64,000 nucleotides of DNA, taken from the IMG/VR virus record IMGVR_UViG_3300046170_000323. One strand, given 5' to 3'. Below the pieces are notes generated by a model that saw nothing but the letters and a program-made list of their open reading frames with translations, ran no database searches and was not told the origin of the DNA. The stretch is from a virus. Its lineage: Duplodnaviria; Caudoviricetes. Positions 4,826 through 61,524 of the stretch are shown one piece after another (within the stretch, counting starts at the first letter, position 1; each line of letters starts with the position of its first letter). Position numbers and translations under genes: made by a program.

Positions 4826-4982
4826 TTTTCGCCTCCTCAATACCCTGTAAGATTAGATCAAACTCTTTTGCGCATGAAGGACAGACATCATAAGTTGCCT
4901 GTCCTTCTGCCATTTCTACAGTCATCTTGAATGACTCTTCTTTATCGAATTGTTTTACGCAGTAGAAACATTCTGTCGACAT
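4815..4982 (-). CDS. Small Zn-ribbon-like protein (55 aa, below the ORF-track cutoff)
   Basis: MSTECFYCVKQ...DVCPSCAKE: two CxxC pairs; start overlaps the gp44 stop. Confidence 0.6.
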   Translation of the reverse strand: MSTECFYCVKQFDKEESFKMTVEMAEGQATYDVCPSCAKEFDLILQGIEEAKNEI

Positions 4983-5941
4983 TACTTGTATTCACTTTCA
5001 ATCATAATTTCTGTCAAGTACGCCACCATGTTGATCTCACTATCAGAGGCGAAGTTTGCCTTGTACATGTAATCTGCAGTGGTGACTACAAATCCTGGCA
5101 TACTACGGAACTCTACACGTTCATCTGCAGCATCATAGATTGCACGAAACATCTCGTTCATATCCTGATCAGAATTACGTGCAACCCACTTGCGCATCTC
5201 AGTGAAGTTCTTAGACTTCAGATAAGAGAACAGTTCATCAACACTTTCTGCTTTCAGATTGACAAAGATACCTTCGTCGATTGAACCTGATGCAGCATAG
5301 GATTGAAGTTCGGTAAGTACACGACGAAAGTCTGGGAAGTATTTCTGTACAACCTTTGCAATGACTTTCTTGTCGTATGACACACCCTCTTGATCAAGGA
5401 TTGCAAGAACACGTTTGTAGAACGCCCCTGCGAGTGCAGGTTTCTCTTCATTGTCAATAGAGAAGTCTATCTCAGAGAGACGTGACCTCAAAGGACTAAT
5501 GATACGGTTCTTGAAGTTACAAGTAAAGATGAACCCACAATTCGAAGAGTACTCCTCAATGAAGTTACGAAGTGCAGGTTGAACATTAGTGGATGGTAGG
5601 TAGTCTGCCTCGTCAAATATAACATATTTACGTCCACCTGTCAAGCTGACTGCAGAAGCAAATGTTGAGATATCGTAACGAACGGCATCGATGTTAACGT
5701 TGAGTGATCCATTCTTTACGATGTAATCACAACCCATCTCTTCAAGCATTGCCTTTGCGACTGTAGTCTTACCTACGCCAGGCCCACCTGTCAAGAGAAG
5801 GTTTGGTACGTTCTCATCCTTGATAAATTTTTGAAAGATTTCTTTTGTTTGTTGAGGAAGAATTGTATCTTCAATCAACTGAGGACGGTATCGTTCCACC
5901 CATAATACTTCGTTTACTTTAGTAGTAAGACCTTCTTGCAT
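4982..5941 (-). CDS. gp44: Clamp loader large subunit (gp44)
   Basis: WVERYRP, Walker A GPGVGKT, DEAD, NFKNRIISPLRSR. Confidence 0.97.
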   Translation of the reverse strand: MQEGLTTKVNEVLWVERYRPQLIEDTILPQQTKEIFQKFIKDENVPNLLLTGGPGVGKTTVAKAMLEEMGCDYIVKNGSLNVNIDAVRYDISTFASAVSLTGGRKYVIFDEADYLPSTNVQPALRNFIEEYSSNCGFIFTCNFKNRIISPLRSRLSEIDFSIDNEEKPALAGAFYKRVLAILDQEGVSYDKKVIAKVVQKYFPDFRRVLTELQSYAASGSIDEGIFVNLKAESVDELFSYLKSKNFTEMRKWVARNSDQDMNEMFRAIYDAADERVEFRSMPGFVVTTADYMYKANFASDSEINMVAYLTEIMIESEYK

Positions 5942-6330: not shown

Positions 6331-6994
6331 TTACCCCTTTTTATAAGTCGACTTAGAATCAATTGCCACAAAATAAGTGACATCGTCACCTTCAAACTTA
6401 GAGATACCTTTTGAAGCAAAGCGTAACTCTATAGTCTTGCGGCAGTAACTTAAGATTATCGGTCTTGATGATAATCTTAAACTCATCGGCAGTATCACCA
6501 ATTTCGACACCGTAGTCATCGGCCCCTTCATTAGTACTATCGATTGCTTTGAGATAACATGTGCCGTTTGAACCGACAAATGCGATCTCACTGAACTGAA
6601 GAACTCCTGCAGCCTTCAATACAGATTGCATGTCATCCCATGAGACATCGACTTCTACATCCTTAGAAGGGATTTTGACATCCTTCTCAGGTGCTGCGTG
6701 AATCATAGAAACGTCTGCGAATAGGTATTTAGTTCTGCGTTTGCCTTCAGAAATAATAAAGTATTTATCATGAAACTCCACATCGGCATCTGCATAAAGC
6801 GATAAAATCGACAAAAAACGTGATAAATCGTAGATACAGGCGTCAGATGGAATCTCATCTGGAATGGTTGCGCTAGCAATCAACGTCCGTTCGGGAGTGA
6901 TTGTCTTGAGGACATTCCCTTCCTTCATCTGGATAGACTTGTTGATTGTAGCAAAACTCTTAAGAATCGTAAGAGTGCGTTCACTGAATTTCAT
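6331..6994 (-). CDS. gp45: Sliding clamp (gp45); one +1 frameshift near 6420
   Basis: MKFSERTLTILKSFATIN, IYDLSRFL, NLKLLPQDY; C-terminus ASKGISKF...YFVAI lies in the adjacent frame. Confidence 0.92.
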
Positions 6995-7024
6995 TATATA
7001 CATATCTCCTTGTGAGTATTCAAA

Positions 7025-7894
7025 CTATACTATACCCCAAAACTCATCCTTTGTCAAGTCTTTTCGGCGAATTCTTTGATTATATTTTATCGCCTCCTCA
7101 ATTAATGAGAAACTTGATTCGAATTGTTTTGCAGTATGTAATAGGGCTTGTGTGTCTTTGGGGAGACAGTGTCCACCCCAACCACGTTCATCTGTGACAA
7201 AACTATGATCATCTCCAATACGTTCATCTAAACATAGGTGATACCTGACCTCATTGAAGTCAATGTTTGCTTTATTGCAGAAATCATATAGTTGGTTGAA
7301 GTAACCTACCTTCAGTGCAAGGAATGCATTCTCTGCATACTTGACGGCAATAGCTTCTTCATTCGTGCAGTGGTGGATGCGAATCCGTTTAAAACGTTTT
7401 ATAAACAAATTTGACCAGAATGAATCTGATGTATCATTACCAAGAATCATATACTTCTGGTTTTCGAAATCATACAATGCAGTTTCCGCACGAAGGAACT
7501 CTGGACTGAATGAAATCTGTTTGTCTGGAAAAGCGGTTTTAATTTGTTCCCAACCCTCAAGACTAATAGTAGACTTAATAAGGATAGGAACGTCTGGTGA
7601 GTCATCAATAACACTTACCACGTTGGTAATGTCACAAGAACCATCAGACGATTTTGGAGTGGATACACAGACGATGACACCGTCTGAATCCTGTTTAATA
7701 GGGAAGTTCCATTCACGATACTGTGGATCCACAATATCATACTTCACTGACTTCACCTGAGAAAAAGCATTAACAACTGCCTTACCCACGTAACCATACC
7801 CTGCTACTGTTATGTTTGTAGTCTTTTTCTTTTGGGATGGGGTTCGGTTTACCGCTTCAAAAGAAGGGTAACCTTTTTCAAATACTGGTTCCAT
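7025..7894 (-). CDS. UDP-glucose/GDP-mannose dehydrogenase family protein
   Basis: GYGYVG Rossmann motif, KST, FSPEFL, KYAENAFLA, GWGGHCLPKD. Confidence 0.9.
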   Translation of the reverse strand: MEPVFEKGYPSFEAVNRTPSQKKKTTNITVAGYGYVGKAVVNAFSQVKSVKYDIVDPQYREWNFPIKQDSDGVIVCVSTPKSSDGSCDITNVVSVIDDSPDVPILIKSTISLEGWEQIKTAFPDKQISFSPEFLRAETALYDFENQKYMILGNDTSDSFWSNLFIKRFKRIRIHHCTNEEAIAVKYAENAFLALKVGYFNQLYDFCNKANIDFNEVRYHLCLDERIGDDHSFVTDERGWGGHCLPKDTQALLHTAKQFESSFSLIEEAIKYNQRIRRKDLTKDEFWGIV

Positions 7895-7896
7895 GT

Positions 7897-8304
7897 TTAC
7901 CTCTCACATACTCTTTTACGTAAATCGGACGAAGAGAATCTATGGTCACGTTTGTTGTAGTACAATTCGATCCCACGTTTCTTACAAGTTTCATAACCAG
8001 TAAAGTTCTTCTCTTTGTATTCTACGCCTAGGATTCTTACGTCGATTTGATACATGGACAGTATATCATCTAAGTCCGCCTCTGTCAAGTACGGAATGAT
8101 CTCATCTACGTAACTAATTGCTTTTAGTTGCGTGTATCTCTCAACAACGGTTTGGATGGGAGAGTTCTTGGACGGACGATCAATCATAGGATCAATCTGA
8201 AGTCCACATATCAAATAGTCGCATTGATCCTTTGCTTCACGTAACATCTGAACGTGTCCAGCGTGAAGCAAATCAAATGCAGATGCAGTAAAACCCACTT
8301 TCAT
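7897..8304 (-). CDS. tagD: Glycerol-3-phosphate cytidylyltransferase-like
   Basis: FDLLHAGH, YVDEIIPY, RDHRFSSS. Confidence 0.85.
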   Translation of the reverse strand: MKVGFTASAFDLLHAGHVQMLREAKDQCDYLICGLQIDPMIDRPSKNSPIQTVVERYTQLKAISYVDEIIPYLTEADLDDILSMYQIDVRILGVEYKEKNFTGYETCKKRGIELYYNKRDHRFSSSDLRKRVCER

Positions 8305-8495
8305 TTTACTTGCCTTTTCAGTAATTCATAGACTACGTATAACTCGTCTATACATTTATCCAATATCATGTGAGCAGTTTCATCATCGTTTTTCTCACGT
8401 TCATCACGTAACATTTTTATGCGTACCTGTAAGTACTTCAAAGGGTTCGCAGGGGAAAGAACTTCCCCCATTGGATGAATCGATCTACGTCTCAC
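8301..8495 (-). CDS. Hypothetical protein
   Basis: 64-aa ORF overlapping both neighbours. Confidence 0.55.
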   Translation of the reverse strand: MRRRSIHPMGEVLSPANPLKYLQVRIKMLRDEREKNDDETAHMILDKCIDELYVVYELLKRQVK

Positions 8496-8959
8496 TTCAC
8501 AAAACGAACCTTGTACTTCTTACCCTTTTCAGAAAAGGTAATTACAGAATGAGAATAAACTTCTTTGGTTGTGTTCTCATATGTGGTTTCATTACGACAA
8601 CGAGTTTCTTGTTTGTAACCAACGATCTGATCTTTTCCTCGTTTGTTATCTGCAGCGATCATGCCACCAAGAACCGCACCTGCAGCTGCACCTTGATCAT
8701 TACCAGATACACCTTTACCAAGGATACCACCGATAATCAAACCACCAAGGACATCGCCTGCGGAGGCGCCCCCGCCCGTACGCCCGTAGATAGGAACATC
8801 TACATCCATACATCTTCGTACGGTAGTGGGGATACTTTCTGTAACTGTGCGATAGTGGTCAACCACTGATCCTTTAACTTTGACTGCATACATCGAATCG
8901 TTTGCAAATGCAGTTGTTGCACATAATGTTAGGGCGGTTGCTAGACAGAAATGTTTCAT
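8492..8959 (-). CDS. Exported glycine-zipper (2TM) protein
   Basis: Signal peptide ending AFA; GGLIIGGILGKGVSG...GAAAGAVLGGMIA. Confidence 0.75.
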   Translation of the reverse strand: MKHFCLATALTLCATTAFANDSMYAVKVKGSVVDHYRTVTESIPTTVRRCMDVDVPIYGRTGGGASAGDVLGGLIIGGILGKGVSGNDQGAAAGAVLGGMIAADNKRGKDQIVGYKQETRCRNETTYENTTKEVYSHSVITFSEKGKKYKVRFVK

Positions 8960-9213
8960 TTCTTTTCTCCATTGTCTTTTTCATTTAACAGTTTGGTGTT
9001 ATCGTTTTGGATCATCCCTTCTTTGATGTCGTAAACCATATCACCCTTAATCATACCTATGATCGTATTCGTTAAATCCACCTCTCGCCTCAGAAACCCG
9101 ATTTTAGTTTCGAGTTTCTCGATTTGTTTGAGGTAGAATTCTAATTCTTGTTCTTTACGTAATTTCTGTTCGATGAAATCACTAATAAGGATTATACGCT
9201 GTTCTTCACTCAT
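8956..9213 (-). CDS. Hypothetical coiled-coil protein
   Basis: ORF in operon context. Confidence 0.55.
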   Translation of the reverse strand: MSEEQRIILISDFIEQKLRKEQELEFYLKQIEKLETKIGFLRREVDLTNTIIGMIKGDMVYDIKEGMIQNDNTKLLNEKDNGEKK

Positions 9214-9219
9214 TGGCAA

Positions 9220-10093
9220 CTATTTTCTTTTCGATTTCTTTTTATAGTTCTTTGGGCGAGACCTTGCGTCTGCTGTGGCAGATACACCAAGAGATCCGAT
9301 TGCACCCATGTTACCCTTGAAGATATGCATACCAATATGGTTTAGTTGCATCCAAGGACACATCCATACACGAAGATCTGCTTTACGTGCCTGTTGACAG
9401 AAGAAATAATCTTCCGACAAATAACGTCTTGATACAGGATCAATGATGCAGTCAAAGAAGGCAGTGATATTACGTTCACCGTCAAAGTTCTCAGTACGTA
9501 CATGATCTGGTTTGTAACTATATTCTGGATATGTATCACGGTACTTCTCAAGAACCTCACGTGGAATCAACATGAATCCAGTACCTGCTTCAGATACTTC
9601 GATTGGTTCACTCAATTTGAATTGACCTTTCATTCCCTGCACTGGGTTGAATACGAAGTCTGATGTGTAGTTCTCCAACTGGAATGGGTTTTCGTCACCC
9701 TTACCTTGTCGTGCAGCTTCTGCAACCTTTTCCCACGCAATAGTTTTCTTGGGATAGGGGCCAGTCATGATGTGATACTTTTCTTTATCATGTACCGCAA
9801 GACCAAGCAACGCAAGTACATCTTTTGCATTGAAGTGGATATCAGAGTCAATGAACATCAAGTGAGAACATTCAGATCGAAGGAATTCGTCTACGACATA
9901 GTTACGTGCACGTTGTACCAAACTCTCGTTGAAGAGATAGTAGAAACGAATTGGTATACCTGCTTGGGTACACAACATCGCCAGATCGTTACAAGATTTT
10001 GTGAAAAGTCCAGAACAGTTTCCACCGTACATGGGGGTTCCGACAAAAATCGAATATCCCCTTTAGTTGTTCTGTTGTAATTTTAATGTCCAT
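9220..10093 (-). CDS. Glycosyltransferase-like (GT-A fold) protein; +1 frameshift near 10050
   Basis: FVGTPMYGG, ESLVQRARN, FIDSD, GTGFMLI, LSEDYFFC. Confidence 0.75.
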
Positions 10094-10103
10094 TATATCT
10101 CCA

Positions 10104-11475
10104 TTATACTTTTAAAGGGTTTCCGCCCAACTTCAGATTATCTTCTGCAGTTTGAATCACGCCATTTTCGATGGTAGTCTCTCCACCATCCTTGTGTGGA
10201 TCAACATGTCCACCGTGGTATTTATTCGTATGCAGCTTCAGACATTTCTATCTCTTTACCTTCAGGCGTCATGAAACCAGAGTTAACTGCAAGAACCATT
10301 TTGTCTTGTGTACTGTATGTACGTTTCTTGTCTAACTTTGTTGTGACAGAATCGATGTCGAACACTTCCATGATCAGTTGGTTACGAAGGACGTTATTTG
10401 TCTTCTGTAATCCACCAACCATCGTGCCAAATGATTTTGGATCTTTGAAATCATCGTGTTCGTAATATTGACCATTTGTTAGAAGTGTAACAACTGCAGT
10501 CATGTACTGTTGAAGGAATGAACGATTGTCATCAATCTTCATCTTCTTGTCTTTCATTGCACAGTAGATAACAAACAAGTCAAAGACTGAGTTACGATTT
10601 GCAATTGCATATGCATCCTCAGACATCACATCTTTCATGAAGGCGTTGAATGTTGTACGGAATTTGTTGATCTGAACTTCACCATCAGAACCATCACGAT
10701 AGAAGTTTTCCATATTTGTTTTGGAAATAGATTTCTTGATATCATAACAAAATAGGAATGCCAAGTTTGCAATGAACTGATCAATACCACGACGATTGAT
10801 GTTGGAGTTTGAAAACCACTTGCCTTGTGTTACAAAGTAATCACCATGTTTATCTGCAAGTTCACGTACAGTATTCGCAACTGTAGTGGTGTAAGAGTTA
10901 AGAATCTCAGGGTGCGTCAAAGGTTTACCATCGTTCACGTTACGGAACAATTCAGATAGTTCTTCACGTGTCGCATCTGTATAAACAGAGATGGTAACAA
11001 TAGCTTCGTGGAATGCATCTGCAAGTACAGGATCAAGAGTATCGTAAGTATCGTTATCTTCATCAACCGCCACAGTTGCACCTTGGATATCATACTTACC
11101 ATGAACAAGACGTATCTTGTTGTTCATGAAATCTACGATAACATTGTTACGGTTGTTAGAGTCGACGTTGATATACTTGATACCACGATCTACTTTCTCT
11201 TGGAAGTATTTGATATCGCCCTTGTCGCCACGTTCAACTGCAGCTGCAAGACATTCGTCTGCGTCTGCAAAGATAAACTTGGAAGGTGCTTTACCTAAGA
11301 TGACAGATCCGATATATGCAGACTTCTGCCACCATTCCCAACGAGAATACTTGTTTGCTTGGAATGCAAGGTCTGCTTCTTGGAACTTACCGATTTGATC
11401 ACGATAAGCATTCATTGTGAAGACCGCATCTTTGTAGGACATTTGACGGAAGTAATTCATAATATAATCTCTCAT
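10104..11475 (-). CDS. DUF262 (GmrSD-like) domain + C-terminal HNH; +1 frameshift near 10235
   Basis: W..WQKSAYIGSVILG, FRNVNDGKPLTHPEILN; rejoined tail HVDPHKDGGETTIENGVIQTAEDN. Confidence 0.65.
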
Positions 11476-11488
11476 TAGTTACAGATAC

Positions 11489-11517
11489 AATATAATACAT
11501 CTACAACGAAATGTCAA
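11489..11517 (-). promoter_or_regulatory. Early sigma70-like promoter
   Basis: TTGACA-17bp-TATATT directly upstream of the DUF262-HNH gene. Confidence 0.8.
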
Positions 11518-11543
11518 GCCCTTTTTTGAAATAAAAACGTTTT

Positions 11544-11799
11544 TTATTTGTAACGATACTGAGACCACTGAAGTTCATCATATGGAACCTTCATAATGTT
11601 TCAACCATTCTAAGGTTACATCCATGTCTGTGTTGATGTCACGATTTGTTTCTATAATAATTTTATGACCATCTTGTTTCCAAGCGTTCAACTTTTCTAT
11701 CATAAACACCGCTGGTTGGGCGTCATGAATTCCATACTGTTCTTGTGCATGTTCTGCTTTAAATGCCACATCATCAAGTTGTACTTTCACTACATTCAT
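11544..11799 (-). CDS. Small HAD-like/phosphatase-like protein; +1 frameshift near 11590
   Basis: G.KIIIETNR, TLEWLKHY-KVPYDEL after rejoining. Confidence 0.45.
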
Positions 11800-12569
11800 G
11801 TAAATAAACCTTCCACATCAAAATCTTCTACTACAGGTTCGCCCTTCTTCCAGTCGAACACATGGTTATATTTCTTATAGGGTTGTGTTGCAAAGAAGTC
11901 TTCCATGCACACCACCTCAACATTATCAAGTTGTTTGTGTAATTCTGCCATCCTTAGATAGTTCAGTTTCAACTGACCTGCAAGGTTTTCAACATATTGA
12001 CTTTCTGGTTCCACATCCAACGTTCTCACTACCGCTTCATCATAGTAATCTTCTGCGACATGCATGTTCCAATGAAAATCAACCAGTCGAGGATTACCAC
12101 TCTTACGACTATGTCTTAGACCATTCCTACCAAACTCACCGTTAGTTCTTAGTGCAACCCAAGACAAGACCTGCGCCTTCCAGTCACGACGATAGAGTAA
12201 GATTACCTTATCTACAGACTTAACAATTTCTAAATCAACCTCTCCATGCGGCCAAGGTTTACGTCTCCAAGGTTCGATGACATGATCAGGCATCAACTTA
12301 AAACATGTCTGTTCCCCATTCTTCAAGGCCTTGATATAGTCCTCACGAAATGGGCGTCCCTGTACAAAAGTAGGGATGAGGGGATTGTCTGGATCATCAC
12401 GTCCCATCTCTAGTTCTTGCCAAAATGCTAAATGTCCACCATACGCCCAAGGACGTTCGTGACTGAATAATTCTCCCATGTAAGGAAGATCATATTCTTT
12501 TGATTTTAAAAGGGTGAAAGCAGTACTACCTGCACGAAAGTTCGTTAGTACACAAACTGTATTGACCAT
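11796..12569 (-). CDS. Sulfotransferase-like (Stf0-type) protein
   Basis: 5'-PSB-like FRAGST, GELF, 3'-PB-like LYRRDWKAQVLSW, MEDF. Confidence 0.65.
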   Translation of the reverse strand: MVNTVCVLTNFRAGSTAFTLLKSKEYDLPYMGELFSHERPWAYGGHLAFWQELEMGRDDPDNPLIPTFVQGRPFREDYIKALKNGEQTCFKLMPDHVIEPWRRKPWPHGEVDLEIVKSVDKVILLYRRDWKAQVLSWVALRTNGEFGRNGLRHSRKSGNPRLVDFHWNMHVAEDYYDEAVVRTLDVEPESQYVENLAGQLKLNYLRMAELHKQLDNVEVVCMEDFFATQPYKKYNHVFDWKKGEPVVEDFDVEGLFT

Positions 12570-12579
12570 CTCAACTCCA

Positions 12580-13686
12580 TTATCTGATAATATCGATATT
12601 ACTATCTTCAGTCCAAATTTCCAGATCGTTTCTTAGACGATCCTCTTCGTTTAGTTTATTGTATCTTTTGGTTGCGAGTTTACGCCACCATTCGATCACA
12701 TTTTTCTGATAGTATTTATCCCAGTTTGGAGCCTTAACAATTTGATCAGTCTTACCGTTTACAATGTCAACAAAGTTTTCTACACCGTAGTTTGAGACAT
12801 AGTAACGTTTCTGTTCTGTCAATGCCTTGGCATCTTCAATAGTTTTCTTGAACCTGTTGAGTTCATCACCTTTCAGTGATTTCTTTATCAAACCAATAAT
12901 CGCATTTGTATATTTCAACTTACGACTTGAAGCACCCTCTTTTACAAGCACACCTCTACCAACAATGTTTTCCACATATGCAACTAAATCCAAGAATGGT
13001 TTACCATGCATCATAGGAATGAAGTCTGACATTGTGTTACCTTTGTAACGCAGTAATGGTTTCATACCATCGTACATCGACGCACCTTTTGTATTTCCAT
13101 ACAAGGATGTGGTCTCGAACATTACGAGGTTCATACCGTATTTCTTGTTGAGTTTTTCTCTGACTTCGTGTGAACAACACAATGATGCCAGTAGTTTACC
13201 ACCAAGGTAGTTGTAACCAAATGGTTGACATGGGACAATAACAAATCCCATAATCGCAGTTCTGTTAAACGTAGACAGTTCTGGTACGTTACCAAGGAGT
13301 TGATTGCGAGGCGCACAGTTGATCACTGGCGAACCAAATCGCATGAACCCCACAAACTGTCCAGTGTTTTTCTCACGCACTGCCAGTTTAAGGGCCTTGC
13401 CTGGGATTGAAACCATATTACTATGACTACTAATCATATTCAAACAGGTATCCCAAGTCATATTGTCAAGTTCGATGACCTCTAGATCCATGTCCTGTGG
13501 GGAAATGGAGAAGTCATCAAACATGTCTGTATCAAAACCAAAGCCAGGCAAAGTTTGAGGTAGTGAACGAATCTGTGCCATCTTCTGATCACGCATGTAT
13601 TCATCAATTCTATCGAACTGACCGAAGTAATTATTGAAGATGTTTGCACAGTGCAATGCCTGATCATTGTTTAGATTGTTAGTCAA
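12580..13686 (-). CDS. Conserved T4-like phage protein resembling DUF4338/DruA
   Basis: GFVIVPCQPFGYNYLGGKLLA, FETTSLYG..SMYDG. Confidence 0.55.
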   Translation of the reverse strand: MTNNLNNDQALHCANIFNNYFGQFDRIDEYMRDQKMAQIRSLPQTLPGFGFDTDMFDDFSISPQDMDLEVIELDNMTWDTCLNMISSHSNMVSIPGKALKLAVREKNTGQFVGFMRFGSPVINCAPRNQLLGNVPELSTFNRTAIMGFVIVPCQPFGYNYLGGKLLASLCCSHEVREKLNKKYGMNLVMFETTSLYGNTKGASMYDGMKPLLRYKGNTMSDFIPMMHGKPFLDLVAYVENIVGRGVLVKEGASSRKLKYTNAIIGLIKKSLKGDELNRFKKTIEDAKALTEQKRYYVSNYGVENFVDIVNGKTDQIVKAPNWDKYYQKNVIEWWRKLATKRYNKLNEEDRLRNDLEIWTEDSNIDIIR

Positions 13687-13939
13687 GAGTCAAGTTGCTC
13701 CATTTTTTAAGTTTCTCACGTTTTGCGTCTGCACATGCATCCACATTATTCCAACTAATCAAATCCCATTCGTGTAGTAAGTTCAACATACACATAAGAT
13801 CACCGACTTCTGACTCCAACTTCTGATTGTTGTCATATCCAAATCGGATCATCTTTGCAGCTTCGATTGCAACCTCTGAACATTCTTCCATAAGAATAAC
13901 CATCAGTTCATCACGCTCTGAAATTTTATCATTACCCAT
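13679..13939 (-). CDS. MazG-like nucleotide pyrophosphohydrolase
   Basis: LMEECSEV...LESEVGDL. Confidence 0.75.
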   Translation of the reverse strand: MGNDKISERDELMVILMEECSEVAIEAAKMIRFGYDNNQKLESEVGDLMCMLNLLHEWDLISWNNVDACADAKREKLKKWSNLTLD

Positions 13940-13943
13940 TATA

Positions 13944-14300
13944 TCACTCCCCTAAGAATTTGTCAAGCCTTGGTGGTTCCCACCCTTCTGGTTTTAGAAC
14001 TTTTCCATCTTCACGTTTGCGAACCTTACCAGTATCTGGATCAATCTTCGCAAAATTTGTTTTCATAACTTCATCCCATGCACCTTGTCCATCCATACCA
14101 GCTGCACGAATTGCACCAATAGTTACAACAAGAATGTCAATCAGTGCATCTAGTTGTTCAACCCTATCGTTTAACATCACTGCGTCTTTAAGTTCACCGA
14201 ATTCTTCTTCGATTAGATCAAGATACAGTGCATAGTTTTCTGGTGACGGTTCTTGGTCACACGCATTACCAAACTTATTGATATCATCAAACAGTGACAT
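13944..14300 (-). CDS. PRA-PH/MazG-like NTP pyrophosphohydrolase
   Basis: LIEEEFGEL, LDALIDIL, EVMKTNFAK, REDGKVLKPEGW. Confidence 0.8.
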   Translation of the reverse strand: MSLFDDINKFGNACDQEPSPENYALYLDLIEEEFGELKDAVMLNDRVEQLDALIDILVVTIGAIRAAGMDGQGAWDEVMKTNFAKIDPDTGKVRKREDGKVLKPEGWEPPRLDKFLGE

Positions 14301-14580
14301 TATATACACCTTTCGTTGTCATGATATATTGTGAGTTAACCGAACGAAGTCGATCCTTACGGAAACTGCGCCAACCATTGGACTCAACATCCCAAACGAC
14401 AACGACTTCCTCACTCTTTTTGCGATTACGATTGATCTCTTCATCAGTTGCCACTGGTGTTGGAAGAACGGACGGATCCAGTGTCGCTTTCATCTGGCGT
14501 ACAGTACCATCTGCTTTCACAAATTCAATATCAACAACTTCAGTTGCAAGTTGTTCCTTTAGTAAGTCAAAATCATACAT
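14287..14580 (-). CDS. DUF2693/WYL_2-like SH3-barrel phage protein
   Basis: FVKADGTVRQMKATL, VWDVESNGWRSFR. Confidence 0.75.
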   Translation of the reverse strand: MYDFDLLKEQLATEVVDIEFVKADGTVRQMKATLDPSVLPTPVATDEEINRNRKKSEEVVVVWDVESNGWRSFRKDRLRSVNSQYIMTTKGVYNVTV

Positions 14581-14753
14581 TGACAGGTCTCCTTCAAAGT
14601 TGTTATCATATCTTTAATTCTAAGTTTTTCTTTCTTTGCCTTACTGATGTGTTGATCTGGTGCTTTCTCAGCAATCAACGCTTCTACGATGGCATGTTGA
14701 TGTTTGTGTGCATCTTCAAGATGTTTCAGTCGGCGTTCTATCTTATCGGTCAT
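14559..14753 (-). CDS. DUF465 (YdcH-like) small coiled-coil protein
   Basis: HLEDAH, KAKKEKLRIKDMI. Confidence 0.7.
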   Translation of the reverse strand: MTDKIERRLKHLEDAHKHQHAIVEALIAEKAPDQHISKAKKEKLRIKDMITTLKETCQCMILTY

Positions 14754-17287
14754 ACAAAGAAATCCTCTAATGTGTTTACTTTTTCTGGTGCCCACCCGAG
14801 CGCCTCTAAGATTGGTTCGATAGGGCCAAGAAAGACCTTCTCGAACTGTTTCTGGTAATCGATGTAATCATCCAGTCCGAACTCTTTTGGTAGGACGCCT
14901 GGGAATGAGATCATGTTCTCTTTCACAGGGTTTGGTTGTTTGAGATATAGGAACTTGATCTTGTCACCAGACTGAATCCCTTCAAACTTCTTGTCCAACT
15001 TCTTAGTCTTCAGAAACTGATTGAAGAGAATACACCCACGAACATGCATAGGACAACCCTTCTTGTATCCACCCCTCTCCATGTACTTCTCAATGTTGTC
15101 AGTACCAGAGTTCTTGGCGATATCTTCTGGGGGTAGAGACGTGAACTCGTCTTTGAACTTTGCAATAAATTCTTGTGTGTCTTCTTCAGTACCTTCCATA
15201 ATAACTTTGAAAGCGTCCTTGAGTTTATCACGACAGATCTGAGGAGTAGATGACCGTACGGATTCCAGACCAGTAACACTGATCTTGGGAGTTTCGTAGT
15301 GGACACCCTCAGAGTTCAGTGTATTCATAATGTAACGTTTCTTCGCAATAAACACTGACTTGTCTGTGATCTTCTCACGTTTCATGAACATCGCTTGACG
15401 GTATGCACCCATCTTCTTAGCGAGTTCCTCATATCCTTTCTCAAGGACGCCTTCAATCTTTGTACCACACACCTGATCAAGGAACTTCTCGCCTTGTTCT
15501 CTTGTAATGTCAACAGTCCCGAATACTTCTTCGATCAGTGGGCCAAAGTTTACATAGATGGAGTCAGTATCGATATACACGATATAGTCTTCACCTTCTG
15601 TCTTCAATAGTTTGTTCAAGTACCCATTCACAGACTTCTGTGCATAACGAATGGACAATTGACCAGAAGTGGTAATTGCCTCTGCGAATTCCATAATGTA
15701 ATACAGGAAGTAGATGTTCGCAGTCGCACCATACAATGAGTTCATAGAAATCTTGATAGACATCTGTGCATTGTGAAGTTGGGTTGCCTTGGATTTTAGT
15801 TTTGCTTTCTTACGTGGATCTGTCTCGTCTTCCAGAGCCTGTTCCACCTTCAACATCTCTTTCTTAATCAGAGAACGTTTGTTGTAGTACTCGTCAATGA
15901 TATCTGGAATGATACCACGTCTCTCATTTGAGAAACATACACCGTTTGCAGCGACTGACACAGTCTTATCATTGTTTTGATAGTTGTCTTCCAGAACCAT
16001 CTCCTGAGAGATAGATTCGAGACGTTGAGGAATGTATGTCTCTGGTGACATGTTGTATTGCAACATGAGGTGTGGGTACAGAGAGTTCAAGTCAAAGGAC
16101 ACCACCCAAGGATGCATCCCGACTTTAGGATCTTTCACGTAACCACCAACCAGTTCATCACCACGTTGGCCAGGCCCGTGTTTGAGTGGGGGAACAATAT
16201 TGTCTTTGATCAGACGACGATAGATAGTGGTCTCCCAATATCCCACCGTACCAAATGCATCACGACAGTTCACACCACCAGTGTACGCAAGAGTCATAAC
16301 CAATGACATCAACGCTACCTCGTCTTCAAGACGTTGAATCAACCAAGTGTCTTTGAGGTTATAGTCCAAGTAGAGTTGAGGGTTCTGTTCATAAAGAGTA
16401 GTAAGGTTACCGTACTCAGAGTAGTCAAGTTTCTTCTCACCCAACACAACGTGTGCAATGTGATCCAACTTGTATGTCTCTTGTGTACCGTACTTGTACG
16501 CAAACTTCTTGAACGTATCAAGATAGTCAACGACACTGATACCAGATATCATGTAGGTGTATTGAGTCTTACCGAACATGTTAGCGGTGTGTTGTTTGAG
16601 GGATCTCCAAGGAGAAAGTTCTTTCGCCTTCTCTTCACCAAACAAACGGATGATACGAGTGACGAGATATTGCACGTCAAAGAACTCTACGTTCCAACCA
16701 GTAACGATGTCGGGGAAGTCATTCGCCCAGATCTTGATGAAACGGAGTAAGAGTGCATGTTCTGTATCGAACTTCATGAACGCAATGTCATCTGGATCGA
16801 TCTCAGTTGTAGTAGCGTATTTGTCGAAGTCCTTACGTCCTAGTAGATGATAGGTGTTGGACTTGGAAGACTTGTATGCGATAGAGGTAATCTCTTTGTC
16901 TGCAGTCTCAATGTTAGCGTAACCATCAGAGATGTCAACCTCAATATCAAACGAACAGATGTTGATCTGATCCATGTCATACTTGATGTCGTTGGGGTAA
17001 TTCTCTTGGATGAACTGTGCAACGTAACTCTGAGTACCACAGATACCAAAGTTAGAAACATCCCTGTAGTCTTCGATGAATTGTTTTGCCTCTGACATAG
17101 AGTCAAACTGTTTACGATGAAGTGGGTTGTTACCATGCAGAGAACGGAACTCTCCACCAGACTTCTGAGTCTGTAAGAATAGAGAGGGTTTGAAGTCAAC
17201 TTTGCGAGAGAACCGTTTACCGTTCTTGTAGCCTCGGTGAAGGATCTTGTTACCGTATCGTTCAACCGATGTGTAGAACTCTGCCAC
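14750..17287 (-). CDS. gp43: Family B DNA polymerase (gp43)
   Basis: Exo FDIE, GWNVEFFD, Y.L.D; Pol SFDLNSLYP, K...NSLYG, YIDTDS, KKRY. Confidence 0.99.
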   Translation of the reverse strand: MAEFYTSVERYGNKILHRGYKNGKRFSRKVDFKPSLFLQTQKSGGEFRSLHGNNPLHRKQFDSMSEAKQFIEDYRDVSNFGICGTQSYVAQFIQENYPNDIKYDMDQINICSFDIEVDISDGYANIETADKEITSIAYKSSKSNTYHLLGRKDFDKYATTTEIDPDDIAFMKFDTEHALLLRFIKIWANDFPDIVTGWNVEFFDVQYLVTRIIRLFGEEKAKELSPWRSLKQHTANMFGKTQYTYMISGISVVDYLDTFKKFAYKYGTQETYKLDHIAHVVLGEKKLDYSEYGNLTTLYEQNPQLYLDYNLKDTWLIQRLEDEVALMSLVMTLAYTGGVNCRDAFGTVGYWETTIYRRLIKDNIVPPLKHGPGQRGDELVGGYVKDPKVGMHPWVVSFDLNSLYPHLMLQYNMSPETYIPQRLESISQEMVLEDNYQNNDKTVSVAANGVCFSNERRGIIPDIIDEYYNKRSLIKKEMLKVEQALEDETDPRKKAKLKSKATQLHNAQMSIKISMNSLYGATANIYFLYYIMEFAEAITTSGQLSIRYAQKSVNGYLNKLLKTEGEDYIVYIDTDSIYVNFGPLIEEVFGTVDITREQGEKFLDQVCGTKIEGVLEKGYEELAKKMGAYRQAMFMKREKITDKSVFIAKKRYIMNTLNSEGVHYETPKISVTGLESVRSSTPQICRDKLKDAFKVIMEGTEEDTQEFIAKFKDEFTSLPPEDIAKNSGTDNIEKYMERGGYKKGCPMHVRGCILFNQFLKTKKLDKKFEGIQSGDKIKFLYLKQPNPVKENMISFPGVLPKEFGLDDYIDYQKQFEKVFLGPIEPILEALGWAPEKVNTLEDFFV

Positions 17288-17571
17288 TATACTTGTTCTC
17301 CCATGTTCTGTGTAATTTCTGTCATCTTAAGAAGTATATCAGAAACTTCGTTCTCTGTCAAGAACCCTTTTACACTATCATAATCTTCAGTCACCCCATC
17401 CAATGGGGTCTGTTCGCCGTGTTTAAACACTGCAATCTCATAGAGTCCACTCATTGTGCCATAGGAAACGGAGTTGCGAACAATGGAAAGTTCGTACTCA
17501 CCGAAGTTTACTACTGACTGAATGCCTTTTGGGATGTTTGTGTTTTGAAATTCTAGATCACTGAATTGCAT
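17287..17571 (-). CDS. Hypothetical protein
   Basis: 94-aa ORF coupled to the gp43 start. Confidence 0.6.
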   Translation of the reverse strand: MQFSDLEFQNTNIPKGIQSVVNFGEYELSIVRNSVSYGTMSGLYEIAVFKHGEQTPLDGVTEDYDSVKGFLTENEVSDILLKMTEITQNMGEQV

Positions 17572-17603
17572 AGTATAGTCCTATAATTTTTCACTTAGGA
17601 TAC

Positions 17604-17632
17604 ATTATACAACTTTTATGGTTGGTTGTCAA
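17604..17632 (-). promoter_or_regulatory. sigma70-like promoter upstream of the gp43 unit
   Basis: TTGACA-17bp-TATAAT. Confidence 0.8.
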
Positions 17633-17810
17633 CCTCTTTCTTCAGTTTATTTTCCCACGCTTCTTCGAAACCATCTAGGTGGTAAACTGTTTCGTGGTTA
17701 CCCCACATTCTTCTGAAGTAACCATCATAACAATCGAACACCGTTTTTTCGTCAGCACCTAAATGGCCCTTGACTATCCAAAACATCCGATAGGCTTCTT
17801 TTCGTGTCAT
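17616..17810 (-). CDS. Hypothetical protein
   Basis: 64-aa ORF, ATGA overlap with gp46. Confidence 0.55.
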   Translation of the reverse strand: MTRKEAYRMFWIVKGHLGADEKTVFDCYDGYFRRMWGNHETVYHLDGFEEAWENKLKKEVDNQP

Positions 17811-19516
17811 GCAATCTCACTGAAGTTCTTTACCTTGTCAAATTTGATGTGTGATGTGAACTTCTCTGCAAACTGATCACCACGGTGTGAGATCACAAAG
17901 ATGTTGTCGTCTGTGTTTAGATTATGTAATGTTTCGATTAAGTTCTCAATACCCGAACCATCCAACGCACCGTCAAGTGTTTCATCTAACAACAATAAGT
18001 TGGTACTGACACTGTTACGCAGTTTTGCAACAGAACGCCATGCCAACATGATAGACAATGTGATGCGGAGTTTCTCACCCTCAGAGAATGAGGCGTAAGA
18101 GAATGCATCACGAAACCTTGATTTGATAACTTCATTAAAGTTTTCGTCGAGTTGGAAGTCCACGAATAGATCAAACGCTCCAAGGTATTTATTGATTAGT
18201 TTGTTCATTACAGGAATGTATTGAGAAATAATTCTCGCTTTAATACCACCGTCCTTTAATATAGTCGAAAGGACACCTAGAACAGACTGATGATCAAGTA
18301 ACTCTTTGCGTTCTTCTGTGTAGACAGATAATTCGTTTTGAAAAGATTCTAACTTAGAAGTGTCAACTTCTTCGACAAGTTGTTCCGCAGCATCCAGTTC
18401 ATTCTTGTATGACAACAATGCATTCTTTGCAATCTTAATCTCACCACGAAGTTCTGAGATACCCAAAGTCTGGTTCTGGATGTCTTCTTCTACTTCGCTG
18501 ATTTCTGCAATTCTGGTTTCGTATCCTGAGATCTTTCCATCGATTTCAACCATACCCGCTTCAATTTGGATTTTCTTGTCTTCTTTTTCTTTGATAACTG
18601 AGTCTTTAAAGTCATGTTCAATTCCCTGTTTGCATGTAGGACAACTATCATTGTCATGATAAAATTTTAGATCTTTCAAGAAGTTGCGCAAGTTTGTATT
18701 CATATCCTTACGAATATCAGATGCAGTAGCATACTTGTTTGTAACATTCTTCTTGTCAGAGATGGTTGTGTAGAGATTTTCGATGGACTCTTGAATGCCA
18801 TCAATCTCTGTTTTGCAACCTTCTATCTTGTCGAGATGAACCTGCATACGTTCACGGATCTTCTCTACCTCAGTCTCACGTATTTTGCGAATACTGTCGT
18901 TGTGTTCCTGTGCACTCTCAATACGTTGTTTGACCATTTCTGTATTATAGTCATTGTCTGTAAGAGATTGACGATTGTCAGAAATACGATCCTTCGCAAG
19001 AAGATTCATAGTACTGAACACTTGAATATCAAGTAGATCTTCAATGATGTCACGTCTTGTGCTTGCAGGGAGTTCCATAAAAGGAACATAGGTTGCACTA
19101 CCAAGGACTACGATCTGATTGAAAGACTTGTAGTTAATACCCAGAATAAATTCTTCTAGATATGACTGATAGTCTTTTACAGCCGCAGATTGATCAACGA
19201 GTTGACCGTCCTTGATTATTTCAAATAGGTTTGGTTTGATTCCACGACGAATGGTATATGAACTACCGCCCACACTGAAATCAATTTCTACCAACAAATC
19301 TTTTTTGTTGATACTGTTAAGCAACTGTCCTTTATTGATCTTACGAAAAGGTTTACCATATAACCCAAATGTCAGTGCGTCCAGTAAGGTAGATTTACCA
19401 CTACCGTTTGAACCACTGATTAGAGTTGTAGGTTTTCTATCTAGATCAATTTTTGTGAATAGGTTGCCAGTTGAAAGTATGTTCTTATAGCGAACTTGCT
19501 TAAACTGTATTCTCAT
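17807..19516 (-). CDS. gp46: Recombination endonuclease ATPase subunit (gp46, Rad50/SbcC-like)
   Basis: GSNGSGKST, CPTC Zn-hook, FSEGEK, LLLLDE, ISH. Confidence 0.97.
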   Translation of the reverse strand: MRIQFKQVRYKNILSTGNLFTKIDLDRKPTTLISGSNGSGKSTLLDALTFGLYGKPFRKINKGQLLNSINKKDLLVEIDFSVGGSSYTIRRGIKPNLFEIIKDGQLVDQSAAVKDYQSYLEEFILGINYKSFNQIVVLGSATYVPFMELPASTRRDIIEDLLDIQVFSTMNLLAKDRISDNRQSLTDNDYNTEMVKQRIESAQEHNDSIRKIRETEVEKIRERMQVHLDKIEGCKTEIDGIQESIENLYTTISDKKNVTNKYATASDIRKDMNTNLRNFLKDLKFYHDNDSCPTCKQGIEHDFKDSVIKEKEDKKIQIEAGMVEIDGKISGYETRIAEISEVEEDIQNQTLGISELRGEIKIAKNALLSYKNELDAAEQLVEEVDTSKLESFQNELSVYTEERKELLDHQSVLGVLSTILKDGGIKARIISQYIPVMNKLINKYLGAFDLFVDFQLDENFNEVIKSRFRDAFSYASFSEGEKLRITLSIMLAWRSVAKLRNSVSTNLLLLDETLDGALDGSGIENLIETLHNLNTDDNIFVISHRGDQFAEKFTSHIKFDKVKNFSEIA

Positions 19517-20579
19517 CCAAGATTCATAGCCTCAATATATAATTCATTCACCAACGTCTTCACCTTTTGTTTGTCGACTTTCGTATCCAGTCCATCGATA
19601 TACTGATGCAAGATTTCTTTGGTATCTTTGGTCTCATCCATAATTTCTTCTGCGCCGACACTTTCTAAGTTCATTGCATCGTCAATTGACTTGATGTCAA
19701 CTGCGCCACTCTCTGACAACTTGTTCATGAACAGATCGTACAGATAGTGGTTAGTCCGATTTTTTCACAATGACTTTGACATATGCATTTTCCTAAAGCA
19801 CTAGTATCAAGGTCTTGAATCTGATCGACAGTCAAGTCTTCGTCATCGTAATCAATCTTATGGAACATTCTATACGGATTTGCCACCTTTGTCAAGTCTT
19901 TTGTTTCAGTGTCAAAAATATGGAATCCACGGTCACCATTATGATCAGACCATGTCATCTCATAAGGCGCACCAAGATACTTGATATTTGAATGTTGTGA
20001 GGGGTGGTGGAAATGTCCAGACCAGACATGTTCAAAGTTAGAGAATCGTTTCATCTCTAAACCATGTGTACATACGTGTCCACGCATCATCTCGAAACCT
20101 TTGACTTCAAGGTGACCACATAGAACATCTGCATCTGACATATCAATAGACGCCATAACTGAGTCGTAGTTCGACTTGGTAATCCAAGGAACCATAAGGA
20201 ACTTCGTAGAACCTTTGGTCAACTCAACAGCATCATGTTGGTACAGAGTAAAATTACTATACTCTTGCAACAACAGGTTCATACTGTTTACGTCATTTGT
20301 ATTTGTGTAGTACGTTGTGTGGTTACCCACCAAAGCATGATATTCGATATTTCGTTTTGCAAGTTCATCGAAAAAGAACTCCTTACCTCTCTTGAGGCTT
20401 TGATAATTGATGTACTTCCGCCGATCAAATGTATCTCCTAGATCAAATACGGTTGTGATGTCGTTATTGTCTAGGTAGGGGAAGAAAACGTTTTTAAAAA
20501 ATGTTTCCTGATGATCAAGAAATACTTGACTATCCCCTCGCACACCAATGTGCATATCTGTAATTATTGCTATCTTCAT
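19513..20579 (-). CDS. gp47: Recombination endonuclease nuclease subunit (gp47, Mre11/SbcD-like); two +1 insertions near 19760-19795
   Basis: TDMHIG, LGDTFD, GNH, GHL, SGHFH. Confidence 0.93.
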
Positions 20580-20998
20580 TCAAGTTGCCCTGTTTCCCTC
20601 ATGGACTTTCGTATCTTAGTTGCGCTGATCTCATGAATCTCTTTACCAAGATCATGTTCAGTAAAAGTATACCCCACACCACGTCCATAACTGATGTCTA
20701 CGATGTTTGGAACTTTCATTATAACATACTCTCTACCATATGTAAAGCCCTCTTGTATAAGAGACATTTCTATTTCGTCGTAGACTTTGTCGAAATCAAA
20801 TGGATTGTCATCTTGAGTTGCAGTACGTCCAGCGCCTACATCCTCACCAACGATACCACCCACATCACGAATCATGATAACTACTTGACCTGTGATTGCA
20901 AGTGCACGTTTAAATAATTCTTGATGTCCTTTGTGCCAAGGTTGCCACCTGCCTAACATCTGTACAGTTGGTTTGTTCCAATCGAAACCGATACTCAT
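20576..20998 (-). CDS. HIGH-motif nucleotidyltransferase (cytidylyltransferase-like)
   Basis: GRWQPWHKGH, ISATKIR. Confidence 0.8.
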   Translation of the reverse strand: MSIGFDWNKPTVQMLGRWQPWHKGHQELFKRALAITGQVVIMIRDVGGIVGEDVGAGRTATQDDNPFDFDKVYDEIEMSLIQEGFTYGREYVIMKVPNIVDISYGRGVGYTFTEHDLGKEIHEISATKIRKSMRETGQLE

Positions 20999-21007
20999 TA
21001 CTACTCC

Positions 21008-21442
21008 TTATCGACAATAATCTAAGTCGAGATATTTTTCTAAAACTTCAGCTAATTGTTGATGAGTGTCATTGAACCACTTACACACGTGATAATCATA
21101 CTCATCGATATGAGGTTGTTCAAATATTTTATTTGTATCCTCAAACCTTCCCTCTTGAATTGTATCCATCCATACTGCAAAATCTGCATTGAAGAATATA
21201 CGGGCTTCAGCGGTAGGACAGATGAAGTCTGCAACTGCAACCTTACCTGCCTTCACTACACCATCTGCTAAGAACTTCATACGCATCGCTTGACGCATAC
21301 GTCCCTCTGGTGTGAAGTCCCAGTCATTGTACTCTTCACGTACCCTGTCTGCGTTTAAATGAACACCGTTGACGAGTTTCGCCAACGGCTCTGCAAGAGT
21401 TGATTTGCCAGATCCTGGCAAACCATATACTAGAATTTTCAT
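21008..21442 (-). CDS. Adenylylsulfate-kinase-like P-loop kinase
   Basis: GLPGSGKST, LNADRVR, DFTPEGRMRQ, ADFICP. Confidence 0.7.
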   Translation of the reverse strand: MKILVYGLPGSGKSTLAEPLAKLVNGVHLNADRVREEYNDWDFTPEGRMRQAMRMKFLADGVVKAGKVAVADFICPTAEARIFFNADFAVWMDTIQEGRFEDTNKIFEQPHIDEYDYHVCKWFNDTHQQLAEVLEKYLDLDYCR

Positions 21443-54709: not shown

Positions 54710-55351
54710 ATGTTTGAGACACTAGTTGTTGCAATCCTGATCGGGATAGTGTGGAGTGAAATCATCTCCCACTTCGGCGCATCTATATTGTTGCACCGAT
54801 ACTACTGTCATAAACAATTCAAAGTCCCTGTCTGGTTTGAATGGGTTGGTTTGTTTATGTTATCTGTGGCGTACATTAGGACGCCTATTGGTTGGATTGC
54901 ATCACATAGAATGCATCACCATCATTCAGATTCAGATAAAGACCCACACAGTGCAAAGCATGTAGGGTTTTGGAAAGTACTATTGACAATCTGGGACATC
55001 CCAAGCATACCAACAAAGTATGCAAAAGATTTGTTTGCAAACCCTAGACTTGTTTTCTTTCACAATCATCACTTAAAAATTCTTATCGCACATAACGTTG
55101 TTGCGTTTCTAATCAGTCCTTACTTCTGGGTGGCATATGCACTTGTTCCATTCATCTTTGCGAAAGTCGGATTTGGTTTATTGAATACAATCGGACATCG
55201 AACTGAGGGAGGCGCAAATGTCCCTTGGTTAAATTTCTTTATTGCTGGAGAAGGGTATCACAAGAATCACCACGAGAATTCCAAACGTGTAAGACTACAC
55301 AAGTGGGATACTGGTGGATGGTTAGCTGAAAAATTATTTGTGAGAGATTAA
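54710..55351 (+). CDS. Membrane fatty-acid (acyl-CoA-type) desaturase
   Basis: His boxes HRYYCH, HRMHH, HKNHH; DPHS. Confidence 0.88.
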   Translation: MFETLVVAILIGIVWSEIISHFGASILLHRYYCHKQFKVPVWFEWVGLFMLSVAYIRTPIGWIASHRMHHHHSDSDKDPHSAKHVGFWKVLLTIWDIPSIPTKYAKDLFANPRLVFFHNHHLKILIAHNVVAFLISPYFWVAYALVPFIFAKVGFGLLNTIGHRTEGGANVPWLNFFIAGEGYHKNHHENSKRVRLHKWDTGGWLAEKLFVRD

Positions 55352-55354
55352 ATT

Positions 55355-57014: not shown

Positions 57015-57708
57015 ACCTTCTGTTAAGTTCTATTCCGAAGAACCTATCATCACAGAAGAGTATCCTATCTACCCTGCGAAACAATATAAACGCAAATGGG
57101 TAAAGAACTGCGCTAGTGCATTTCAAAAGTACCGTAAGGTTACTGATGGACGTGCATCCGTTATCTCTGCAGTCAAATGTCCTGGCATCCGTAATATTAT
57201 GGAAGAGGGATGGATCGCACAGACGTGGCATGATTTCACTATTGAAACAAAAAGTGACGGATATGAAATATTCTATCCAAATGCGATGAAAGACTTTCTC
57301 AAAAGAATTGAATATAAACATCGTCCCATCGAAGTATTCGATACACGAAAAGGCCCAATGAAAGTTCCCACAGGGCGCAATCACAATCACATATTTAAGA
57401 TTCATATTCCGTATTGTTTCGACATTCCAAATGGATATGAGTTGAGAATATTACCAGTTGCATATGATGACAACCCTCAGTTCACTGCATGTGCAGGTTC
57501 TTGTGAAGGGTTCCAGTCAGAATTTAATATTCATATTTTCTGGCACACTCCAGAAGGTCGTGTAACGATTCCCGCTGGAACGCCTCTTTGTCAGATCGTT
57601 CCCATGCGTAAAGAGAAGATAAAGATAGAGACAGGGATTGCAGATGAACCGACACTCAAAAGGTCGAGGAGAAACCTATTACATAGGAGTAATAAGTTTA
57701 CACTATGA
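56992..57708 (+). CDS. Hypothetical beta-rich protein (DUF6065-like)
   Basis: KCPGI, TIPAGTPLCQIVP. Confidence 0.5.
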   Translation: MNIPFLTKPSVKFYSEEPIITEEYPIYPAKQYKRKWVKNCASAFQKYRKVTDGRASVISAVKCPGIRNIMEEGWIAQTWHDFTIETKSDGYEIFYPNAMKDFLKRIEYKHRPIEVFDTRKGPMKVPTGRNHNHIFKIHIPYCFDIPNGYELRILPVAYDDNPQFTACAGSCEGFQSEFNIHIFWHTPEGRVTIPAGTPLCQIVPMRKEKIKIETGIADEPTLKRSRRNLLHRSNKFTL

Positions 57709-61513: not shown

Positions 61514-61524
61514 AGGGTAAACAC

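Follow-up and report, generated by a model that had tools for sequence, protein, structure and literature searches.

A lid-less APS-kinase relative and a small NadM-related nucleotidyltransferase encoded as a mobile pair in marine phages and bacteria: a candidate miniature PAPS synthase

The window analyzed in this study is a stretch of 64,000 nt from the genome of an uncultured marine T4-type phage (IMG/VR record IMGVR_UViG_3300046170_000323), whose DNA shows only distant kinship to cultured cyanophages and pelagiphages. Two small adjacent genes on its minus strand are the subject of this work. P0002 (21008-21442) encodes a lid-less P-loop kinase of 144 aa that resembles adenosine 5'-phosphosulfate (APS) kinase, and P0001 (20576-20998) encodes a minimal HIGH-type nucleotidyltransferase (NTase) of 140 aa with the motifs GRWQPWHKGH, YGRGVGY, and ISATKIR(K). 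The pair lies between the gene of a gp55-like sigma factor, just past 22084, and gp47 (SbcD-like; 19725-20579, minus strand; phrog_100 at 2.3e-90). An 84-aa open reading frame upstream ends in a TAA that abuts the ATG of the kinase gene, AAGGAG lies between the kinase stop and the ATG of the NTase gene, and the NTase stop and the gp47 start overlap as ATGA, an overlap that indicates the operon context of the pair. A first-pass annotation had proposed that the window carries a self-contained sulfation pathway, in which the pair is a minimal split synthase of 3'-phosphoadenosine 5'-phosphosulfate (PAPS) that feeds two sulfotransferase-like proteins, along with a PiT-like transporter. All of the open reading frames that it named are present, and only the coordinates of the membrane protein needed correction, because this gene ends at 41942 and not at 42015.

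P0002 matches the Pfam family APS_kinase (PF01583) with 35.3 bits (cut-off 21.1; E 1.4e-8). A family profile (A4) composed of 19 mini-kinases from phages and bacteria and free of canonical CysC sequences found about 25 solved APS kinases as its first matches in the PDB (9e-16 to 5e-7), and the next family was shikimate kinase (1e-5). When the mini-kinases were aligned to the CysC domain of P0273, a fusion protein described below, the residues G12, K13, D32, R35, F43, R48, F73, P76, and R81 were found to be conserved; G12 and K13 belong to Walker A, and the others match the LDGDxxR, FSxEDR, and SFISP motifs of canonical CysC. The ranking of APS kinases ahead of every other family, the retained motifs, and the loss of the lid together identify P0002 as a specific lid-less derivative of this enzyme. 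Judged by its sequence, P0002 is a genuine APS-kinase derivative, which confirms that the kinase had been correctly described as APS-kinase-like.

Searched as a single sequence, P0001 gave weak matches that favored nicotinamide mononucleotide (NMN) adenylyltransferase (NMNAT) over ATP sulfurylase. The family to which it belongs has the near-invariant motifs GR(W/F/Y)QP(W/F)HxGH, YGRxVGY, and ISATxIR, and its profile (A2) matched, across the N-terminal two thirds, the NadM-type NMNATs 1f9a, 2qjt, and 1ej2 in the PDB (4e-11 to 6e-7), with phosphopantetheine adenylyltransferase (PPAT) as a weak match at about 0.015. The AlphaFold model of P0001 (mean predicted local distance difference test score, pLDDT, 87.5) gave VIA Z values of 10.2 (2qjt) and 9.4 for NadM, 9.6 for PPAT, and 8.5 for the Thermus ATP sulfurylase Sat (1v47). 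On the sequence evidence, the NTase derives from NadM-type NMN adenylyltransferases; the HIGH motifs noted in the first-pass annotation are there, and the assignment to the Sat type gives way to the NadM relationship. If the NTase activates sulfate, it would be an analogous enzyme co-opted from among the NMNATs. For each of the two proteins, homology to a known enzyme family is established.

The NTase is a shortened relative of NadM. A stretch of 40 residues in 1f9a (69-108) is replaced by 15 profile positions (76-90), so that the segment from strand 3 to the C-terminal helix is about 25 residues shorter in the family than in NadM, and the family core of about 115-125 aa falls short of the full-length NadM core of about 165-180 aa. 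We take the lost stretch of 1f9a to include NMN-contacting elements of NadM. The HxGH motif of P0001 is preceded by GRWQP at the place where Sat has QxRNP, and G105 and R106, which are invariant in the family, align with the GRD loop of Sat (VGRDHAG) in an hhalign alignment of low confidence.

This ancestry raises the alternative of an NAD-type salvage, in which the kinase would act on nicotinamide riboside or NAD, the NTase would be a true NMN adenylyltransferase, and the phage would refill the NAD(P) of its host. NadM-type NMNATs are the only significant sequence relatives of the NTase family and also its top fold match, and in some JGI records the relatives are named 'nicotinamide mononucleotide adenylyltransferase'. 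However, the NTase lacks the ~25 NadM residues described above, and its partner is specifically APS-kinase-like rather than NadR- or Nrk-like. The gene context speaks to the same question: no NAD gene was found next to the pair in the loci examined, and cysQ, Sulfotransfer_3 genes, and CysC fusions were seen there instead. We therefore regard NAD salvage as quite unlikely.

The kinase and NTase genes are obligately linked. Immediately upstream of the NTase gene, a kinase relative is encoded in 72 of 80 IMG/VR viral loci and in 68 of the 80 bacterial loci, where the two genes usually overlap by 8 nt, and this adjacency is far above chance. The two are also fused, in PHROG 10255 and many metagenomic proteins and, among cultured phages, in the Xylella phages Sano and Salvo and the Stenotrophomonas phage DLP6. 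The idea that the two proteins form one functional unit is supported by this adjacency and by the fused forms. A complex prediction for the kinase and NTase returned a score of 0.00, which says nothing for or against binding. Three further proteins in which the NTase is joined to a partial chorismate synthase, DHQS_C, or UCH (P0195, P0222, and P0237) were set aside as probable assembly chimeras. A 364-aa APS-kinase-like protein of Pelagibacter (genome G002; L259 1456-2550, minus strand, contig 2) was considered as an extra fusion and rejected, as it has no NTase part; it consists of a lid-bearing N-terminal APS-kinase domain and an unknown C-terminal domain of 190 aa, and its gene adjoins a formyltransferase-like gene.

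The NTase family is very large. Its metagenomic members form more than 8000 clusters when grouped at 90% identity, and at 50% identity there are 974 representatives. The place of the pair between gp55 and gp47 is seen in only 1 of 69 loci, that of this phage, and the pair is a mobile two-gene cassette. In the NTase tree, viral sequences are interleaved with SAR11-type, other alphaproteobacterial, and gammaproteobacterial ones, a pattern that fits exchange between phages and hosts. The phage proteins of the pair are 50-68% identical to chromosomal copies in metabolic operons.

Such mobility would also suit a counter-defence enzyme that alters or depletes an adenine-nucleotide immune signal, with bacterial copies that serve sulfation or are derived from phages. 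A hint of an anti-defence neighborhood was seen on one short phage-like contig (L169 139-1465), where the kinase-NTase fusion P0290 lies two genes after a 93-aa protein with a weak match to the Acb2/Tad1 hairpin. The movement of the cassette among phage genomes with its nearly unique gp47-adjacent position here, the interleaved tree, and the fact that most phage copies have no sulfotransferase nearby are all compatible with this possibility. However, the Acb2/Tad1 match is single and weak, no defence-system context was seen, and the identity to chromosomal copies in metabolic operons points elsewhere. We consider a counter-defence function very unlikely.

In bacteria, the context of the pair is related to sulfation. 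P0273 is a GRWQPWHKGH NTase fused to a complete canonical APS kinase (PF01583, 5.7e-63) with the lid present, and it is carried by four contigs that come from separate samples (JGI and ENA). A genuine cysQ (TIGR01331, 288 bits) lies immediately upstream of the pair in one lineage of alphaproteobacteria (L089-L092). An operon of SAR86 (G019) encodes, in order, an APH-like kinase, a 183-aa protein, a Sulfotransfer_3 protein (135 bits), the mini kinase, the mini NTase, and a 2-hydroxyacid dehydrogenase, and a Sulfotransfer_3 gene is within 1 kb of the NTase gene in 10 of the 28 NTase-bearing genomes of the SAR86 order. In an alphaproteobacterial metagenome-assembled genome (L165), the fused pair is followed by genes for glycosyltransferases of families GT2 and GT4, a Sulfotransfer_3 protein, and a GT9 glycosyltransferase, and in a genome of Pelagibacteraceae the fused pair lies within a sugar-nucleotide cluster. 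The occurrence of the pair beside sulfotransferase and cysQ genes in bacteria of the SAR86 and SAR11 types suggests that it probably makes PAPS.

The gene content of SAR86 is in agreement with this suggestion. Of 61 genomes of the order, 26 have both the NTase and Sulfotransfer_3, 2 have only the NTase, 5 have only the sulfotransferase, and 28 have neither of them (Fisher p = 4.6e-10). Sat was found in one of these genomes and a strong CysD/H match in one. On a complete SAR86 chromosome, which encodes two strong sulfotransferases, searches for Sat and CysD found neither, and the sole APS-kinase match was the mini kinase.

The same type of survey bears on the housekeeping pathways that the pair might otherwise serve. 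All five genomes checked encode CoaD and CoaE, and four of them have NadD above the cut-off, which leaves no gap in the pathways of coenzyme A (CoA) and NAD for the pair to fill; the pair-bearing SAR11 genomes also have NadD, a further point against NAD salvage. The genome without NadD above the cut-off is the complete SAR86 genome (G003), in which the NAD adenylyltransferase could not be clearly identified, and this is in favor of that alternative. Only an odd 372-aa protein (L258 828-1946, minus strand; C1:523142-523627) was found there, with the NTase in its C-terminal half and the motifs GRFNPIHSGH, FGRKIG, and ISSTILR, which are like those of the mini NTase. Because no canonical NadD was detected in this genome, the 372-aa protein may serve there as the NAD adenylyltransferase or may be a further relative of the mini NTase.

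It is also conceivable that the pair makes another 3'-phospho-adenylyl product, with the NTase acting on a phosphate ester such as 4'-phosphopantetheine and the kinase adding the 3'-phosphate, as PPAT and dephospho-CoA kinase do, or that it makes an unknown PAPS-like donor. The chemistry would be the same, at the 3'-OH of an adenylyl compound, and PPAT is the second-best fold match of the NTase besides its weak profile match. In the main Pelagibacter clade (about 40 loci; L133 4359-8013), the pair has an M24 peptidase gene upstream and an enoyl-CoA hydratase gene downstream (40 loci), with a HalD-like oxygenase gene also downstream in some loci, and the hydratase counts in favor of this alternative. 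A neighboring cysQ would fit as well, since 3',5'-ADP, which phosphatases of the CysQ type can remove, is also a product of phosphopantetheinyl transferases. However, canonical CoaD and CoaE are encoded in each of the five genomes checked, the Pelagibacter synteny represents one lineage, and sulfate is indicated both by the fusion to a complete CysC and by the operons with sulfotransferase genes. We judge a CoA-like product to be unlikely.

Taking these observations together, we suggest that the kinase and the NTase are rather more probably than otherwise a two-protein miniature PAPS synthase, carried in phages as a mobile metabolic cassette, and we are more confident, holding it likely, that the pair has some role in PAPS or sulfation metabolism. 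In the proposed mechanism, the NTase, a NadM relative lacking about 25 residues, would bind ATP through HxGH and ISxTxxR, and its invariant Gly-Arg loop, YGR[D/G]VGY, would position sulfate to attack the alpha-phosphate, yielding APS and pyrophosphate. The lid-less kinase would then phosphorylate the 3'-OH of APS to form PAPS, and this second step would pull the unfavorable formation of APS forward. Sulfotransferases would use the PAPS, in this phage probably P0003 (11796-12569, minus strand; 257 aa), a probable Stf0-like sulfotransferase and candidate PAPS consumer, and perhaps P0004 (60635-61513, plus strand; 292 aa), an orphan and weak sulfotransferase candidate; in other cases, the enzymes of the host would do so. 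Sulfate as the substrate of the NTase, APS as that of the kinase, and every acceptor are what we infer from homology and context. For the broader proposal, we see even chances: the NadM-derived NTase of 120-140 residues would be a third, analogous class of ATP sulfurylase besides Sat and CysDN and, with the lid-less kinase, would constitute a phage-spread cassette and the hidden sulfate activation of SAR86, parts of SAR11, and their phages.

Several observations weigh against sulfate activation by the pair. No Sat structure was found with the NTase family profile in the PDB at E<=10, PF01747 (Sat) scored only 17 bits on P0001, below its cut-off of 24.3 and over the HxxH stretch only, and hhalign of the family against two Sat sequences (greedy local mode) gave a probability of 9%; P0001 was accordingly rejected as a Sat-type ATP sulfurylase by homology. 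The Asp of the GRD-like loop varies among D, G, N, E, and K, and P0001 itself has GRG. The nearly equal fold matches to NadM, PPAT, and Sat mean that the fold leaves the substrate of the NTase undecided. On the side of the kinase, about 18 lid residues are gone in all of the mini-kinases aligned with P0273. In bacteria, the SAR86 co-occurrence statistic is not corrected for phylogeny, and no sulfur genes were found near the pair in the loci of the main Pelagibacter clade. In phages, most contigs with the pair show no recognizable sulfotransferase: of five large viral contigs that carry it, none encodes a Sulfotransfer_3 protein above the cut-off, and there was one weak match of 19 bits. The reading of the pair as a minimal split PAPS synthase consequently stands in part: the derivation from APS kinase, the unity of the pair, and the PAPS/sulfation context are upheld, and a Sat-type NTase is not.

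The phage pathway proposed in the first-pass annotation fared less well. A P0003 relative was found near the pair in only 1 of 80 viral loci, that of this phage, a P0004 relative in 0 of 80, and a sulfotransferase-like gene of the 213-aa type described below in 2 of 80, and these counts lead us to reject co-occurrence at the level of phages, as do family sizes that differ by orders of magnitude (17 clusters for P0003 and one for P0004, as against the NTase figure given above). Rather than a conserved and self-contained sulfation pathway, the window holds a mobile cassette that shares the genome with two candidate sulfotransferases, and the parts could work together within this phage genome.

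Of these two candidates, P0003 is the stronger. Neither protein matched a sulfotransferase family in Pfam, PHROG, or NCBIfam, the P0003 family profile found nothing in the PDB, and hhalign of this family against three Sulfotransfer_3 proteins and against P0004 likewise gave nothing. The P0003 model (pLDDT 92) is closest to the Stf0 structure 1tex (Foldseek 2.7e-4; VIA Z 8.8), followed by 4gox (Z 8.0), with shikimate kinases at up to Z 7.7; Stf0 clusters of the ESM atlas match it with TM values of 0.55-0.59, and kinases with 0.43. Its family, which comprises marine phage contigs only, has the invariant or nearly invariant motifs TNFRxGST and YRRDxxxQxxS, resembling the 5'-phosphosulfate-binding (5'-PSB) and 3'-phosphate-binding (3'-PB) motifs, respectively, and lacks the lysine of a Walker GK[ST]. 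Its predicted fold and motifs make P0003 a probable sulfotransferase. A viral cluster of 1864 members, with proteins of 193 aa, is structurally near P0003 (TM 0.65, ESM atlas), and another phage genome (G008) encodes, about 5 kb from the pair, a 213-aa protein (L252 1360-2001, minus strand) with the sequences PGSKWS and HRPNDS and a weak Sulfotransfer_3 match. This suggests that marine phages hold sulfotransferase-like proteins that Pfam misses or barely detects.

No relatives of P0004 were found beyond its own cluster. Its language-model look-alikes (0.95-0.96) include Sulfotransfer_1, Sulfotransfer_3, and Stf0 clusters, with such annotations for 12-75% of the members, and these features hint weakly at a sulfotransferase. 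The earlier designation of both proteins as sulfotransferase-like thus holds for P0003 by fold and motifs, without a family match, and for P0004 by these look-alikes only. P0004 lies in a co-oriented block (54710-63221, plus strand) that also encodes two fatty-acid-desaturase-like proteins, a B12-binding/radical-SAM-like protein, a TauD-family dioxygenase, and proteins like short-chain dehydrogenases/reductases and Asp/Asn beta-hydroxylases, a set that resembles enzymes of lipid hydroxylation and tailoring.

The membrane protein P0005 (41043-41942, minus strand; 299 aa) is polytopic and a possible PiT-type phosphate/sulfate permease. It had no match in Pfam, PF01384 included, at E<=0.01. Its atlas cluster is automatically named 'phosphate/sulfate permease' (0.98) and a PHO4 cluster follows at 0.88, which can be taken as a lead only, and two P(V/M)ST(S/T) repeats were recognized by eye. 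P0005 is present on at least 590 contigs of IMG/VR, with identities of 90% or more among the 80 listed, a conservation that is unusually strong for a phage accessory gene. The protein may be a PiT-like permease, and a link to the pair is at most a possibility.

The other recognizable genes of the window include those of the replisome, namely a gp44-like clamp loader (4982-5941), gp45 (6398-7003), the family-B DNA polymerase (14750-17287), and gp46 (17807-19516). Between gp45 and gp43, the replisome operon carries an island of a sugar-nucleotide type (7025-14309, minus strand) with a gene like those of UDP-glucose/GDP-mannose dehydrogenases, a second small cytidylyltransferase-like gene (135 aa), P0003, a GmrSD_N-like gene (417 aa), a DruA-like gene (368 aa; phrog_19197), and genes for MazG-like and PRA-PH-like pyrophosphohydrolases. 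This island may be a module for DNA or glycan modification.

In the literature, we found no paper that describes the pair, a miniature ATP sulfurylase or PAPS synthase, or SAR86/SAR11 sulfotransferases tied to the pair. A PAPS synthase with an analogous, NMNAT-derived adenylyltransferase would be a previously undescribed way of making PAPS. If the proposal is true, about 280 residues in total suffice for sulfate activation, by way of an enzyme lineage that had no earlier connection with sulfur. The SAR86 and SAR11 lineages are usually described as lacking the capacity for sulfate assimilation, and the pair would fill a pathway gap in bacteria that are among the most abundant in the ocean, that have sulfotransferases, and in which neither Sat nor CysDN was found. 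The pair would also be a very widespread auxiliary function of phages, given the number of NTase clusters alone, and the present annotations (cytidyltransferase, NMNAT, or 'kinase') would be misleading. A minimal PAPS synthase could furthermore be of use for enzymatic sulfation in biotechnology.

The proteins discussed here can be compared with four known systems. P0003 shares with Stf0 (PF09037) and Sulfotransfer_3 proteins its predicted fold (1tex), a 5'-PSB-like RxGST without the Walker lysine, and a 3'-PB-like RRDxxxQxxS, although it belongs to a small family that no sulfotransferase profile recognizes. With the NadM enzymes of M. jannaschii (1f9a) and M. thermautotrophicum (1ej2) and the NadM-Nudix proteins of Francisella and Synechocystis, the NTase shares GR(F/W/Y)QPxHxGH, the NPF element, and ISxTxxR. 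In contrast to NadM, it is always partnered with an APS-kinase relative, and its context is sulfation, not NAD. The mini kinase shares with CysC (PF01583) the P-loop, (L)xxDxxR, F(S/T)xExR, (D/S)F(I/V)xP, and overall collinearity, whereas it has lost the lid of ~18 residues (KGLYKKARAG...FTGI in P0273), most mini kinases have Asn or Ala in place of the first Asp of DGD, and the length is 136-144 aa compared with about 180-200 aa for CysC.

The bifunctional PAPS synthases (PAPSS1/2 of metazoans; bacterial Sat-CysC, such as that of Aquifex, 2gks; and CysN-CysC) are the closest parallel to the pair as a whole. The adenylyltransferase of the pair is only about 120-140 aa in length, compared with about 380 aa for Sat or with the CysD/CysN GTPase pair, and it lacks the PUA-like domain and the QxRNP motif of Sat and shows no significant similarity to that enzyme; its kinase has lost the lid, and the activity of the pair is predicted. 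Like the pair, the PAPS synthases combine adenylyl transfer with a step of the APS-kinase type, and their parts are likewise encoded together or fused, in either order, with the kinase-NTase order of the fused pair being that of PAPSS. The pair is likewise found near sulfotransferase and cysQ genes.

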